Positions 51,170 through 56,588 of a stretch of DNA of 64,000 bases are shown piece after piece (within the stretch, counting starts at the first letter, position 1; each line of letters opens with the position of its first letter). Source of the stretch: an uncultured Acidobacteriota bacterium (GTDB lineage: Bacteria > Acidobacteriota > JAQAZP01); contig CAWIIB010000001.1 of NCBI GenBank assembly GCA_963836075.1, forward strand, positions 1,856,001 through 1,920,000, in the 5' to 3' direction. The notes beneath the pieces were generated by a model, which was given only the letters and a program-made list of their open reading frames with translations, did not search any database and was not told the DNA's origin. The translations under genes were made by a program, and so were the position numbers.

Positions 51170-51205
51170 AAAAAAACGGGATGAAACCCGAGAGTCTCAT
51201 CCCGT
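51170..51205 (-). terminator. Terminator of RRM copy 1
   Basis: ACGGGATGA...TCATCCCGT stem with T-tract on the minus strand; same stem follows copy 2. Confidence 0.8.
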
Positions 51206-51289
51206 CCTTCTCAAACGATCCCGGCCGGATCGGGTTCACCCCTCACTCAGTGCAGGGGAGTGTCCCGGTCCGGCACCGGATGCTGCGCC

Positions 51290-51550
51290 CTAGTAACGGG
51301 GACGCCGCTCTTCCCGGGGCCGGGCTTCGTTGACCTTCAGATTACGACCGCCAAGCTCCTTGCCGTCGAGGGCGCGGATGGCTTCGTCGCCGCCCGAGGA
51401 CATCTCGATGAAACCGAATCCCCGCGGACGGCCGGTGTCCCGGTCGGTGATCATCTTGACTTCATCCACGGTGCCGAACTCTTCGAACATTTCGCGGATG
51501 TCGCTCTCGGTGGAATCAAAGGACAGGTTGCCAACATAGATATTCGTCAT
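51290..51550 (-). CDS. RRM (RNP-1) RNA-binding protein, copy 1
   Basis: RNP2 IYVGNLSF, RNP1 RGFGFIEM, GRNLKVNEARPR; AAGGAA upstream. Confidence 0.95.
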   Translation of the reverse strand: MTNIYVGNLSFDSTESDIREMFEEFGTVDEVKMITDRDTGRPRGFGFIEMSSGGDEAIRALDGKELGGRNLKVNEARPREERRPRY

Positions 51551-51940
51551 GGTCTTTATTCTCGTTTCCTTTTTCATGATCGGTCTCGAGGGTGGATACC
51601 ACTCCCGATCGATCGTCCTCGCGGCCCAGCAGATTCAGCTGAAGGCTCGGAGGGCCCCTTGTGGGGCTAGTGTTCTCTTGATCCGGCACCAGTTGTCACT
51701 ATTGACCACCGGCGCATTCTCGACTCGTGCGTCGTCGCGCTCCTCTTCGCTTATTCAAACCTTGCTGCCCGCTGAAACAAAAAGAGCCTCCGCAACGGTG
51801 AATCCAGGCCGGCAGTCTGAATGGGGCGCCGTCCCGGCCACCGTCGCGGTAAGGGGTTTCCGATCCACATCCACTCAATAAAAAGAGGCGGTCTCTAGAC
51901 CGCCCCTCTCACTTGCGTGCGACATGTCCGAAAACTCAAG
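51551..51940 (-). ncRNA. Candidate structured 5' leader RNA of RRM copy 1 with an internal terminator-like hairpin
   Basis: Extended -10 TGGTATAGT at 51952-51944; hairpin 51906-51885 followed by TTTTTATT; stems preserved by compensatory changes in copy 2. Confidence 0.6.
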
Positions 51941-52105
51941 CGGACTATACCACCACCATGGGAAAAAGTATAGAAAAATAAAATATTTATATCGTTGTCA
52001 GGTACCGACGCCGCCCCGGGGAAGCCCGGTGTTTCATCTATCCATGCATTGTCCATGAAAACGTCCCCGGCGATGCCGCCGACGGTCACACAAGCAGCCA
52101 TGGCA

Positions 52106-52372
52106 TCAGGAGGACAGGGTAACCCAGTTTCCGCAAATACCGGAGATCGGCGTGGACATTGATGTCCCGCCGGGGCCAAAGCCGACACCCGCCTGAGCCG
52201 GGCTCAGACTCTCGTCGACGCCCATCCCTGGTCCCAGGTGGCCGGTGAAGGTTTCATAAGCGGTTGAAAAGTGCATGGAACCAGCCGGAGGCGTGAACGT
52301 CTTGCCACAGCCAAGGGCCGAAGTCTCGAAACTCGTCTGAGATTGCATGGTGGGGGGCGAATACTTTTTCAT
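52106..52372 (-). CDS. Small 88-aa protein, RiPP-precursor-like
   Basis: GGAGG RBS 5 nt before ATG; MKKYSPPTMQSQTSFETSALGCGKT... followed by a Gly/Ser/Thr/Pro-rich core with a second Cys. Confidence 0.6.
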   Translation of the reverse strand: MKKYSPPTMQSQTSFETSALGCGKTFTPPAGSMHFSTAYETFTGHLGPGMGVDESLSPAQAGVGFGPGGTSMSTPISGICGNWVTLSS

Positions 52373-52578
52373 TCTCTCCTCCGCTGCTGATGGACGCATT
52401 ATCGCTCCGGGTCGATACCGCGCGTCTGGAAAGCAGGCCCATTCAACGACTGAACGGTCCGGGGGAAACCCAAACTTGCCTGCACCGTCAACCAGTACAT
52501 CCTTGCTTCAGGAGCAGCCCAGCACTGGCGGAACGAGTTTCAGACCGAGGCCGTGGCAGCGTTGATCACAGCTTCACG

Positions 52579-52692
52579 TCACTGTGCTCTTTTCGGCTGC
52601 TTGTCCTCCTTTTTCTTCGCTTCCTGCTGCTGTTTACTTTTTTTCTGTTTCTTGATTCTGTCCTTGTCCTTCTTGCCGCCTTTGTCGCCCAT
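52579..52692 (-). CDS. 37-aa lysine-rich small protein
   Basis: MGDKGGKKDKDRIKKQKKSKQQQEAKKKEDKQPKRAQ; purine-rich RBS (GGAAAGGGTG) upstream. Confidence 0.65.
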   Translation of the reverse strand: MGDKGGKKDKDRIKKQKKSKQQQEAKKKEDKQPKRAQ

Positions 52693-53421
52693 TGTTTCAC
52701 CCTTTCCCCTGCCAGGTTCATCGTTCAGGCACAGCCGCAGGTTCACATCTATAGTATTGATATGATGCATCATAAAGTGGGTTTAAGCAATAAAAATCGA
52801 TAGTGCTGTTCGGCCAGTAAGGGCAACAGCTTTATTGAATCGGGATGGGGTCCACCTCTGTCCACCGGGAACCCACTGCAGAACCAGCTCAGATTTTCTT
52901 CGCGCAGCCGCGTGCCCCTGTGGGAACTGGATGATGTACTCTATGTAAAAAATTACCCTGAATACCAATAATTATCTGCTCACAGCCGGTTACGCTCGAG
53001 GGGGCCATTACAAATATATGTATTATTGTCATGTGTTTATACCCACACAAGGATACGACGCCAAGGCAGTGGAATAACAATTGCTTATTGTACGCCATAC
53101 AACCAAATATACAAAAGGTCAGTTCATCCAACTGTATTAGGACCTATGATCTGGCCTTGGCAAATGTTCATTCCCGAAATGGGATACAACAACAGCGCAT
53201 TTTGCTGTTATGTATCTAAGGTGTTTAATTTTTCAACCCACTCACATCGCTCACGGGCCGGGAGGGGAGGTGTCATTTTTGGAGGTACTCGCGGTGAGTA
53301 GCGGGGCGCATTCCACCCAGGTGGAGCGTTCGGCGACTACCGTGAGGTGATATACCCGTGTTGATTTGTTCATAATCCACTACACGGTCAGAATTCCTAT
53401 TCCATTTGGAGGAAATAGCTG

Positions 53422-55146
53422 ATGAAGAAGTATTTCCTGATTTTCGCCCTGGTGATCTGTTTCTGTTCCTGGGGTGCCGTGGCCGACGAGACCACCTGTT
53501 TCCCCACGGCTGCCGCTGACAACACCGGCTCCACCGACGGCGCGACCATCACCGACTCGAGCATGATCCGTGGTTACAGCATGGAGGATGGCTGGGCCAA
53601 GTTTGACGTGTCCGCCATTCCTGACACCAATACGGTGACCCAGGTCGACTTCAACTTCTATGTGAACAGCACGTACCATCCCTACTGGAGCACCACTCCG
53701 GTGACCATCGATCCGGTGGGCGCCGACCCGGCCGCACTCGCCAGTGACATCACTGCCGAAGCGAGCACCGGCTACTACAACTATCAGAACGAGTCGAGCA
53801 CTTACGCTCCTGGGTGGAAAACGCTGACCCTGGGCGGCAATGCCGTGGCCGACATAAACGCCGCCCTGGCCGGCGACGCATTCACGGTGGGTATCGCCAG
53901 CCGCGACAACAGCACGACCTACTACATCATCATGGACGGCTGGAACGAGGCCAACGCGCCCTACTTGGTAGTGACGCACACCGCCGATGAGATCTGCTTC
54001 CACGACGGTTGCTCGGACGCCTATCCCATCGCATCCGGCGAGCTGTTCCAGGGCAGGAACTGTGCCTGCACCGACGACTTCCAGGATTACGCTTGTGCCC
54101 CCTGGAGCTTCCTCGGACCGGACCAGGTGTTCACCATCGACCTGGAATGCACCGGCACCCAGATCGACGTGAACTGCACGCCGACCGACGGGTGGGATCC
54201 GGCCATCGCCATCGGTTTTGAGTGCTCAAACGGGAACCTGGTCTGCCTCGCCGCCGCGGACGCGGGATTTGGCGGTGATCCGGAGGCCATCAGCTATCTC
54301 ACCACCGTCGGTGAAGTGGGTACTCTCTACATCTTCGTCGATTCCTACTATTCAGGAGGAGGCCTGGAATGCGGCGATTATGACCTGACCGTTACTTTGG
54401 ACAACGGCATTCCCAACGACGTCTGCACGGACGCCATCCCCGTGGCCGTGCCCTCGGTGACCCACGGCACCACCGATTGCGCCACGTTCGACGGGGCGCC
54501 GCTCTGCGTGACTTCGCAGACCGCGCCAGGTGTCTGGTACTCGGTTATCGGCACGGGCGTCACCATGTATGCCGAAACCTGCGGTCCCACCTACTGGTAT
54601 GATACCAAGATCTCGGTATTCACCGACGGCTGCGACACGCTGACCTGTGTCACCGGCAACGACGACAACTGCCCGGACGGCGCCAGCGGACTGCTGAGCG
54701 GTGTCCTGTGGGACAGCGTCGAGGGGCAGGAGTACCTGATCCTGGTGCACGGCTTCAGTTCTGCCACCGGTGAGTTCGACCTCTATGTGGATTCCGATGT
54801 GGTGGACACCTTCGACGTGACCATCACCTGCGTCACGCCGTCTGTTGTAATTCCCGGCATGGTGAGCCTGAGTGTCGACGTGACCAACCTCACCGACGCG
54901 CCGATCACCGTGAGCGGCCACGTGGACGCCACCCTCTGCAACGGCGTCGAGGTAGGACCGATCCGCAACGGTTTCCTCTACCTCAACCCGTTCGAGACCA
55001 AGGCCATCGCGTGGACACAGGGGCTTTGGGCGGCCAATCCCAGGACCTGCGACTGTGATCTGATCTGGACGGTCTACGCACAGGATGATGCAACGCTCGT
55101 CGAAAAGACGAACTCCTGCGTCATCTCCACGACGTGCCCTAAATAG
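53422..55146 (+). CDS. Secreted Cys-rich multidomain protein (DNRLRE/CBM-like domain + PPC-like domains) with a divergent C-terminal domain
   Basis: GGAGG RBS; signal peptide; KFDVSAIPD...PYLVVT; NDVCTDAI, GVWY, DTKISVF, NDDNC motifs. Confidence 0.85.
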   Translation: MKKYFLIFALVICFCSWGAVADETTCFPTAAADNTGSTDGATITDSSMIRGYSMEDGWAKFDVSAIPDTNTVTQVDFNFYVNSTYHPYWSTTPVTIDPVGADPAALASDITAEASTGYYNYQNESSTYAPGWKTLTLGGNAVADINAALAGDAFTVGIASRDNSTTYYIIMDGWNEANAPYLVVTHTADEICFHDGCSDAYPIASGELFQGRNCACTDDFQDYACAPWSFLGPDQVFTIDLECTGTQIDVNCTPTDGWDPAIAIGFECSNGNLVCLAAADAGFGGDPEAISYLTTVGEVGTLYIFVDSYYSGGGLECGDYDLTVTLDNGIPNDVCTDAIPVAVPSVTHGTTDCATFDGAPLCVTSQTAPGVWYSVIGTGVTMYAETCGPTYWYDTKISVFTDGCDTLTCVTGNDDNCPDGASGLLSGVLWDSVEGQEYLILVHGFSSATGEFDLYVDSDVVDTFDVTITCVTPSVVIPGMVSLSVDVTNLTDAPITVSGHVDATLCNGVEVGPIRNGFLYLNPFETKAIAWTQGLWAANPRTCDCDLIWTVYAQDDATLVEKTNSCVISTTCPK

Positions 55147-55160
55147 GTACACGTTATGAA

Positions 55161-55200
55161 AGTGGGGTGCGGTCGCCCGACCGCACCCCACTCCCTTTTC
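55161..55200 (+). terminator. Intrinsic terminator
   Basis: AGTGGGGTGCGGTCG-CC-CGACCGCACCCCACT stem followed by CCCTTTT. Confidence 0.8.
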
Positions 55201-55467
55201 ACCAGCTTCAGATCCACCCCATCATTCTCAGACCGGTTCCCACTCGTCCCAGCCGGCAACCCATCCTGCTGATGATGTATTCGATTTAACTCGAACAGGT
55301 TTCCACTGATTGCCGAGCCCAGAGCCGAGATTGTCATGTTTCAGGCGGCAATATAACGGCTCCCGGGGGCCACGGTGGCGGTACTGTTCAGCAGCTTCCA
55401 TTGGCTATATGTGTCTGATACTCGATGGACGGGGAAGCTCGCAGCATATATGCCATGCCTTGTGTAC

Positions 55468-55506
55468 AAAAGAAAACGGGATGAAGCCCAAAGAACCTCA
55501 TCCCGT
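55468..55506 (-). terminator. Terminator of RRM copy 2
   Basis: ACGGGATGA...TCATCCCGT stem followed by TTTCTTTT on the minus strand. Confidence 0.8.
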
Positions 55507-55589
55507 CTTTATCGAAAGACCCCGGTCGGATCGGGTCTCCACCTGAACTTTACAGAGGCACCACCGGCACGGCACCGGGATGCAGCACT

Positions 55590-55850
55590 CTAGTACCGGG
55601 AACCCCGCTCTTCACGGGGCTTCGCCTCGTTGACTTTCAGGTTGCGGCCGCCGAGTTCCTTGCCGTCGAGGGCGCGGATGGCTTCGTCGCCACCCGAGGA
55701 CATCTCGATAAAACCGAATCCCCGCGCACGACCGGTGTCACGGTCGGTGATCAGCTTGACTTCGTCCACGGTGCCGTGCTGTTCGAACAGCTCGCGGATA
55801 TCGCTCTCGGTGGAATCAAAGGACAGGTTTCCAACATAGATATTCGTCAT
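55590..55850 (-). CDS. RRM (RNP-1) RNA-binding protein, copy 2
   Basis: MTNIYVGNLSF...RGFGFIEM...GRNLKVNEAKPR; near-identical to copy 1. Confidence 0.95.
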   Translation of the reverse strand: MTNIYVGNLSFDSTESDIRELFEQHGTVDEVKLITDRDTGRARGFGFIEMSSGGDEAIRALDGKELGGRNLKVNEAKPREERGSRY

Positions 55851-56236
55851 GGTCTTTCTTCTCGTTTCCTTTTCAAGATCAGACCCAGGGAAGGCCCCTG
55901 GTTGATCGTCCCCGGGGCTCAGCAAATTCAGCTGAATGCTCGGAGGGCCCCTTTCGGGGTTGGTGTTCTCTTGACTTGGGCACCAGTCGTCACCGCTGAC
56001 CACTGATGCTCAGATGACTCTTGCGTTGTCGCGCTCCTCTTTGCGCATTCAAACCTTGCTGCCCGATGGACTCATTTTGAGCATCCACAACGGTTAAACC
56101 GGACCGGCAGTCTGAATGGGCGCCGACCCGACCACTGTTGCGGCTGCGAGCTTTCGATCCACATCCACGCAATAAAAAGGGGACGATCTCAAGACCGTCC
56201 CTCTCACTTGCGTGCGACATGTCCGAAAACTCAAGC
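55851..56236 (-). ncRNA. Candidate structured 5' leader RNA of RRM copy 2
   Basis: Extended -10 TGATATAGT at 56247-56239; hairpin 56201-56180 followed by CTTTTTATT. Confidence 0.6.
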
Positions 56237-56588
56237 TGACTATATCACCAACGAAGCGAAAAGCATAGTAAAATTAATATTTTACACCGAACCCGTCACC
56301 GTGCAGGTGGCCCTGTGAGACTGATGATGGGGCCAATGTAACCACTAACCAGCAAATATCCTTGGTCGCAGGTGGGATCAGGTGGATCAGCCGATTCCTC
56401 ATGCTGATGGCATCTTTCCTCCTGTTGGCCAAGACATTGCGGAGGATGAACCCCCGGAGAAGCCACGCGGCATGGCAATTAACCACTATTTCTTGCTTTG
56501 GCAACACCCCAGCCCTATATTTTACGTTGATAGATAAACCAATGGCGGTCATGGGCTGACGAGCGAATGAGGAGATAAGGAGACAACA

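Follow-up and report, generated by a model that had tools for sequence, protein, structure and literature searches.

Introduction

The leader of Escherichia coli cspA is a thermosensing 5′ untranslated region (UTR); close to its 5′ end it has a “cold box” common to the paralogues, and to our knowledge an explicit terminator hairpin is not a feature of this leader. In autogenous attenuators, such as the leaders of Bacillus ribosomal-protein genes, an RNA-binding protein binds its own terminator-ending leader and sets read-through. The Chlorobi-RRM motif, a candidate cis-regulator in Chlorobi, is drawn with P1, P2 and, as the last hairpin, P3/terminator (PMC2864571). Three RRM-1 paralogues of Bacteroides (rbpA, rbpB and rbpC) are described with 5′ UTRs of 122-155 nucleotides (nt), with feedback at the transcriptional and post-transcriptional level and with a role in cold adaptation; a parallel is drawn to the autoregulated E. 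coli cspA leader of 159 nt, and the authors leave undecided whether the rbp UTRs are thermosensors (PMC13370968, a 2026 preprint). Here we analyse the leaders of two RRM genes, A and B, in a 64,000-nt stretch of DNA (the window) from an uncultured Acidobacteriota bacterium (GenBank assembly GCA_963836075.1, contig CAWIIB010000001.1, positions 1,856,001 to 1,920,000 of the forward strand), which a first-pass annotation had proposed to be attenuator-like cis-regulatory RNAs.

In our judgement the chances are about even that each leader is a 5′ UTR of ~385 nt belonging to a new, genus-restricted family of cis-regulatory RNAs, which would act by premature termination and 5′-end structure with RRM feedback or temperature as the input. 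Like the autogenous attenuators, the locus has an RNA-binding-protein gene behind a structured leader with an intrinsic terminator (protein binding is here only proposed), but it has the terminator ahead of the main conserved domain, opposite to the arrangement usually seen. Like the cspA leader, the leader here is long, belongs to an RNA-chaperone gene and opens with a conserved box found in all paralogues; unlike cspA, it has no Rfam match and its protein family is RRM, not the cold-shock domain (CSD). The resemblance to Chlorobi-RRM (RF01697) is in kind only: both lie upstream of an RRM-protein gene and form hairpins that include an intrinsic terminator, and the size of the Chlorobi motif, ~70 nt, is comparable to that of the ~57-nt first module here, which consists of the 5′ block, a small hairpin and the terminator (PMC2864571). 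The phylum is different, however, and here ~330 nt more of conserved structure follow the terminator, whose flanks pair into a long 5′ hairpin. As in Bacteroides, three paralogous single-RRM proteins each have a long 5′ UTR; the leaders here measure ~385 nt and have an early terminator, whereas the Bacteroides UTRs span 122-155 nt and the word “terminator” occurs nowhere in the main text of that preprint (PMC13370968). This likeness is one of description, and we claim no sequence relation.

Results

Leader conservation and distribution

The products of genes A and B match RRM_1 (PF00076) with 70.3 and 68.4 bits, respectively, at a gathering cut-off of 20.7. Their leaders (A, 51551-51937; B, 55851-56232; both minus strand) align collinearly, as the first-pass annotation had observed: with leader A as the query (aligned positions 6-410, 405 nt), BLAST returns leader B at an identity of 79%. 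The 6.2-Mb genome that holds the window (G000) contains a third leader copy at C9:3308158-3308483, ahead of a third RRM gene, and two sister species, one of which is referred to as G002, contribute three and two further copies. The total is eight copies in three genomes, two or three per genome, which fall into three paralogue classes (A, B and C types), and in all eight an RRM_1 gene lies directly downstream.

Over the eight copies 147 of 324 leader columns (45%) are invariant, compared with 10 of 35 (29%) fourfold-degenerate sites of the genes, and the mean pairwise identity is 75% in the leader versus 68% at fourfold sites, a sign that the leader is under selection. Conservation is high in the 3′ domain, where 45 of 66 columns are invariant, and the alignment collapses upstream of the promoter. 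Because orthologues are closer than paralogues (92% between leader B of G000 and the G002 copy, 81% between A and B within G000), the similarity of the leaders is not due to recent gene conversion; it is more than chance or recent duplication would leave. Reading frames in the leader vary among the copies and single-base indels are present, which speaks against a coding role of the leader. A leader peptide was considered and rejected, the frame that starts at the ATG of the 5′ block running for ~16 codons in A and ~76 in B and stopping after 4 codons in the C type.

Among 60 relatives, BLAST found the leader only in the two other species of the genus and in none of the 58 other genomes of the phylum. 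We also built covariance models of the 5′ half (R1, 154 positions) and of the 3′ domain (R2, 68 positions), and each was searched against 150 genomes of the phylum besides G000. The known eight copies were recovered with 141-159 bits (R1) and 84-96 bits (R2). Outside the genus each model gave three weak matches (29-35 bits for R1, 22-24 bits for R2), which we discarded as generic terminators or GC hairpins that lack an RRM gene in their neighbourhood. RRM proteins themselves are common in the phylum: at E up to 1e-20 they turn up in 75 of 151 genomes (two unpublished genomes are counted here). The nearest one outside the genus is just 69% identical, and R1 and R2 yielded nothing meaningful at 20 RRM loci taken from the phylum's other genera. 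A 21-base anchored pattern hit nine loci in a species-representative collection, five of them real and located on two metagenome-assembled genome records, one of which is titled Acidobacteriota bacterium; in a metagenome collection it hit 11 loci, among them four real ones that hardly differ from known copies. The remaining pattern loci (4/9 and 7/11) have no BLAST similarity to the leader and were set aside as chance matches. Within the G000 genome, a 16-nt stretch of the 5′ block occurs exactly three times, always ahead of RRM genes, and the other invariant blocks are likewise confined to the three leaders. Within the range of these searches the leader is therefore confined to one genus, and it always accompanies the RRM trio.

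In total G000 has five RRM genes, and upstream of the two more distant ones (65% and 38% identity) BLAST found no match to the leader. The 65%-identical paralogue (C1:2012052-2012303) is preceded by a gap of ~390 nt (L007:1761-2148), in which R1 gives a weak match (L007:1898-1995, 19.5 bits, E 0.013), and the sequence just 5′ of its ATG has AAGGAAGCGAGAA in common with the A and B leaders. Judged by these sequence features, the gap may hold a diverged relative of the same leader.

In agreement with the first-pass annotation, which had recognised no known riboswitch, Rfam scans gave no match, whether over the whole window (gathering score), over 51200-56400 (E up to 10) or over the six other copies (E up to 1); the Chlorobi-RRM (RF01697) and cspA covariance models likewise did not match in these scans. 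Weak matches to sR40 and mir-483 in 51200-56400 and to MIR7486, P31 and HCV_SL1412 in the six other copies lie far below the gathering scores and were dismissed as chance or generic hairpins.

RNA structure and covariation

The two leaders of the window fold more stably than shuffled sequences (z = -6.17 and -6.45), with 0 of 100 shuffles folding as well. The consensus structure of the eight copies has 95 pairs, with 95.9% of cells paired. Pairs changed on both sides number 19, versus 9.3 ± 2.0 in 500 shuffles, none of which reached 19, and 3-5 when the partners are slid; the compensatory changes cluster in the terminator, P4, P8 and the hairpin proximal to the ribosome-binding site (RBS). The covariation anticipated for a wider alignment is thus present above controls. 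In terms of a general test for structured non-coding RNA, covariation and stability exceed controls and no reading frame is conserved, in eight sequences of one genus. The positions of the individual elements are given in Table 1.

Table 1. Positions of the RRM genes and of the leader elements in the window (numbering of the 64,000-nt stretch)
Feature	Position	Strand	Description
RRM gene A	51290-51550	minus	86 aa; Pfam RRM_1 (PF00076) 1.2e-19
Copy A RBS region	51551-51577	minus	purine-rich, unpaired in consensus and single-sequence folds; ends at ATG 51548-51550
Copy A variable hairpin	51578-51614	minus	GAUCGAUCGGG...CCCUCGAGACCGAUC, upstream of the RBS
Copy A 3′ domain	51616-51681	minus	AAGAGAACAC; GCCCC-N4-GGGGC hairpin; nested helices CCUC/GAGG and UCAGC/GCUGA
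Copy A hairpin P8	51686-51715	minus	helix 8: 10 pairs, 6 with compensatory change
Copy A invariant block	51754-51770	minus	GGGCAGCAAGGUUUGAA
Copy A P4/P5 hairpin	51786-51853	minus	68 nt; invariant 12-nt apical loop CCCCAUUCAGAC (51815-51826)
Copy A 5′-terminal long hairpin	51856-51935	minus	5′ block pairs with GAUGUGGAUCGGAAAC (51856-51871) just past the U-tract, enclosing the terminator
Copy A terminator-like hairpin	51880-51909	minus	stem 51898-51906/51885-51893, loop UAGA, U5 51880-51884
Copy A putative start and invariant 5′ block	51910-51937	minus	GUUUUCGGACAUGUCG...; contains small CAC-GNRA-GUG hairpin
Copy A promoter	51944-51974	minus	extended -10 TGGTATAGT 51944-51952; TCTATAC box 51968-51974
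RRM gene B	55590-55850	minus	86 aa; Pfam RRM_1 (PF00076) 4.8e-19
Copy B downstream domain	55851-56147	minus	P4/P5 56081-56147; GGGCAGCAAGGUUUGAA 56048-56064; P8 55979-56009; 3′ domain 55909-55974; RBS-proximal hairpin 55877-55907
Copy B 5′ module	56150-56232	minus	putative start, 5′ block, terminator hairpin 56171-56204 with U-tract, closing strand of long 5′ hairpin
Copy B extended -10	56239-56247	minus	TGATATAGT, aligned with copy A

A single conserved promoter

Both leaders have, as had been claimed, an extended -10 element at their 5′ border, and its core TG-n-TA-nnn-T is invariant at the aligned position in all eight copies, with a TATAC box ~18 nt further upstream. Inside the leader there is no conserved second TGnTAnnnT, a second match being present in only one of the eight copies. 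A sigma-54 box candidate picked out by eye, GGGCAGCAAGGTTTGAA, has no -12 GC at the required distance and reads GGGCCTC in two copies; it was rejected. Since only one conserved promoter was found, the gene must be transcribed through the hairpin that follows. Conservation begins 8 nt after the -10 element and the start was therefore placed at about 51936 (±2); judged by sequence, transcription would begin at about 51936 in A and about 56231 in B. The block following the -10 element is identical in A and B, as first described, and extends over 38 nt rather than the 36 nt given at the time. It contains a small CAC-GNRA-GUG hairpin whose loop varies among the copies (GCAA, GGAA, GUAA and GAUA).

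The promoter data bear on the idea that the structured region is an independent non-coding RNA gene, the partner RNA of the RRM protein (as Y RNA beside Ro), with the RRM gene having a promoter of its own. In favour of this idea, the RNA and the gene have been co-duplicated three times. On the other hand, there is no conserved promoter between the structured region and the ATG and no terminator at the 3′ end of the structured region, and in the short C-type copies the conserved domain stops just 18 nt 5′ of the ATG. We give this explanation very little credence.

A predicted intrinsic terminator within a long 5′ hairpin

The hairpin and T-tract singled out by the first-pass annotation read GGGGCGGTC-TAGA-GACCGCCTC-TTTTT in copy A (51880-51906) and GGGACGGTC-TTGA-GATCGTCCC-CTTTTT in copy B, which is also listed as terminator-like by the scan. 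All eight copies have what defines an intrinsic (Rho-independent) terminator, namely a GC-rich stem of 9-13 bp with a 4-nt loop, followed by U5-U7, and it sits ~57 nt into the transcript. The compensatory exchange of G-C to A-U described for A and B holds in the wider set, where the pair is GC in four copies and AU in four. The terminator helix (helix 3) comprises 12 pairs, three of them with compensatory change, and 98.9% of its cells are paired. In every copy the terminator hairpin is the minimum-energy structure of the nascent RNA, with folds of -18 to -24 kcal/mol. As a separate observation, the 3′ arm of the copy B terminator (56179-56188) is a perfect 10-nt complement of the GGGGACGAUC block that closes the 3′ domain (55904-55913); this complementarity is imperfect in the other copies compared by eye and may be due to chance.

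Past the U-tract, the 5′ block finds a pairing partner that encloses the terminator. This helix 1 of the long hairpin has 14 pairs, of which 96.4% of cells are paired, with changes on one side only. Read-through RNA is thereby predicted to form one 5′-terminal hairpin of ~80 nt that includes the first transcribed bases and carries the terminator as its tip. This arrangement points just as well to a role in mRNA stability. The terminator-like hairpin could then be the non-terminating tip of a structure that protects the 5′ end of the mRNA or serves as a double-strand-specific processing site, with the whole leader exerting cspA-like temperature control of mRNA life and translation. Consistent with this, the read-through RNA of 8/8 copies folds into an almost unbroken hairpin (about +2 to +81), the first conserved base is paired, and the cspA parallel has been drawn for the Bacteroides rbp genes (PMC13370968). 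Yet at least five U right after a perfect GC-rich stem are kept in all eight copies, the cspA family of Rfam is not matched, and minimum-energy folds of the read-through 5′ module at 15 and 37 °C have the same topology, which is a weak test. We would grant a non-terminating hairpin of this kind a small chance.

A further alternative is that one promoter gives two products, mostly a stable small RNA (sRNA) of ~57 nt, made up of the 5′ block and a U-tail, which acts in trans as an RRM decoy or by base-pairing, the mRNA being a minor read-through product. The terminator is strong by its features. Moreover, helix 1 varies only in the strand that pairs with the 5′ block, the block itself being invariant, which points to a second constraint on the block, and the heptamer UUCRGAC is found in both the 5′ block and the P5 loop. 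However, conservation in the ~330 nt downstream equals that of the 5′ block, which a pure sRNA gene does not explain; a separate promoter for the gene was not found within the leader, and every copy of the block in the G000 genome lies next to an RRM gene. An sRNA as the principal product seems unlikely to us.

The heptamer occurs twice per leader, at 51926-51932 and 51815-51821 in A and at 56221-56227 and 56110-56116 in B (minus strand). In the whole window there are 16 matches on both strands, which is not above shuffles; this rate predicts ~0.05 per leader, and the observation is post hoc. The repeated UUCRGAC could be a protein site, or two alternative partners for GGUUUGAA.

The sole hint of expression, a weak one, is a 151-nt RNA-library contig (run X2, from a near relative), which covers 51772-51921 with three other letters and one gap and spans the U-tract, extending 108 nt to one side and 37 nt to the other, as read-through RNA would. 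Runs X1, X4 and X5 gave mostly RRM genes of other organisms, at <90% likeness, and were put aside.

The domain downstream of the terminator

The P4/P5 hairpin (helices 4 and 5) has 23 pairs, five of them with compensatory change. A candidate pseudoknot joins GGUUUGAA with UUCAGACU of the P5 loop; 8 bp are possible in all eight copies, and both sides are invariant, so that covariation is uninformative. Between this hairpin and P8, in the middle region (51716-51785 in copy A), no consistent helix was found beyond a weak GCGC hairpin. The helices of the 3′ domain (9-11) are 97.5-100% paired, and the GCCCC-N4-GGGGC hairpin is present in both leaders as described. The RBS-adjacent GATCGG...CCGATC hairpin (helices 12-13, three pairs with compensatory change) was also found where it had been reported, and among the eight copies only two, those of the C type in G000 and G002, do not have it.

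The invariant loops and the possible pseudoknot are reminiscent of aptamer cores, and one may ask whether the leader is a metabolite-binding riboswitch or another ligand sensor. In a riboswitch the aptamer precedes the expression platform, whereas here the terminator lies upstream of the conserved domain and cannot be its expression platform. The sole hairpin near the RBS is the one missing in two copies, the Rfam scans matched no riboswitch family, and the class of the downstream gene, an RNA chaperone, does not suggest a metabolite. A ligand sensor is, in our view, highly improbable.

Surroundings of the RRM units

The terminators of the genes are homologous across all eight genes (ACGGGAUGA...UCAUCCCG followed by a U-run; 51176-51215 and 55473-55509 in the window, minus strand). 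The 3′ UTRs of the A and B types measure ~110 nt, are conserved and have hairpins; those of the C types measure only ~25 nt. Pairing between 5′ and 3′ UTRs was rejected as a common feature: an inverted-repeat scan gave copy-specific matches only, the C-type 3′ UTR has ~25 nt, and folding the whole sequences as a duplex was uninformative. The two RRM units of the window are separated by an AT-rich stretch (about 52700-53400) that holds a small lysine-rich frame (52579-52773, minus strand; listed with 64 aa, possibly ~37 aa from an internal ATG) and by a 574-aa cysteine-rich protein with a signal-peptide-like N-terminus (53422-55146, plus strand), and neither protein has a Pfam match. Beside its five RRM genes, G000 has one CSD gene (C9:2140836-2141027).

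Discussion

The first-pass proposal of an attenuator-like cis-regulatory leader stands as regards its non-coding, conserved and structured nature and its terminator-like hairpin; the antiterminator helix of an RNA-switch attenuator is not there. Several points weigh against the reading that we favour below. In the 28 nt upstream, the 5′ arm of the terminator has no alternative antiterminator pairing. In helix 3 the GAGAG/GAAAG run of the 5′ side is a further partner of the U-tract, whose conservation could reflect the long hairpin alone. The 151-nt RNA-library contig could stem from contaminating DNA. The RBS region is predicted to be open, and translational control by masking is not evident from the folds. 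Finally, the covariation is shallow, coming from eight sequences of one genus in three paralogue classes, and the structure is derived from the alignment on which it is scored.

A classical RNA-switch attenuator is characterised by a mutually exclusive antiterminator helix, whereas the nascent RNA here always folds into the terminator, and these models make such a switch unlikely. Without an antiterminator helix, regulated read-through would therefore need protein or kinetic control. We infer that the hairpin terminates transcription in vivo and that a signal acts on this step. In the cis-regulatory leader that we favour, transcription would start from the conserved extended -10, and the first bases of the RNA would be the invariant block. 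To express the RRM gene, RNA polymerase would have to pass the intrinsic terminator ~57 nt in. On read-through, the sequence after the U-tract would pair with the 5′ end to give the ~80-nt 5′-terminal hairpin, downstream of which the multi-helix conserved domain and then the open, purine-rich ribosome-binding region would follow. The output of RRM protein would be set by the terminated fraction, together with effects of the folded 5′ end and of the downstream domain on mRNA life and translation. Given that the terminator is the fold of the nascent RNA in every copy and has no upstream helix to compete with it, we favour a factor, not an RNA switch, as what would set the terminated fraction: either the RRM proteins, or temperature acting on folding and polymerase speed. 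By analogy with other RNA-chaperone leaders, RRM-protein feedback or temperature is the most likely input.

Could the RRM proteins themselves set the terminated fraction? They might bind the invariant 5′ block in its single-stranded state, or the UUCRGAC heptamer that recurs in the P5 loop, while the polymerase is at the U-tract, which would result in a cross-paralogue attenuation circuit that decides between the ~57-nt RNA and the full mRNA. We put this circuit forward tentatively and rate its probability as low.

The reach of the finding is limited to one rarely sampled genus. Chlorobi-RRM has been the only curated motif connecting RRM genes with terminators in their leaders, and the present leader adds a second, unrelated case. 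Recognition of bacterial RRM proteins as RNA chaperones of the cold-shock type is just beginning, and a long, conserved, structured leader with a built-in terminator provides a defined RNA for in-vitro tests of feedback and temperature control. If true, the protein-driven circuit would be the first transcription attenuator run by a bacterial RRM protein, and the terminated RNA might double as a decoy.

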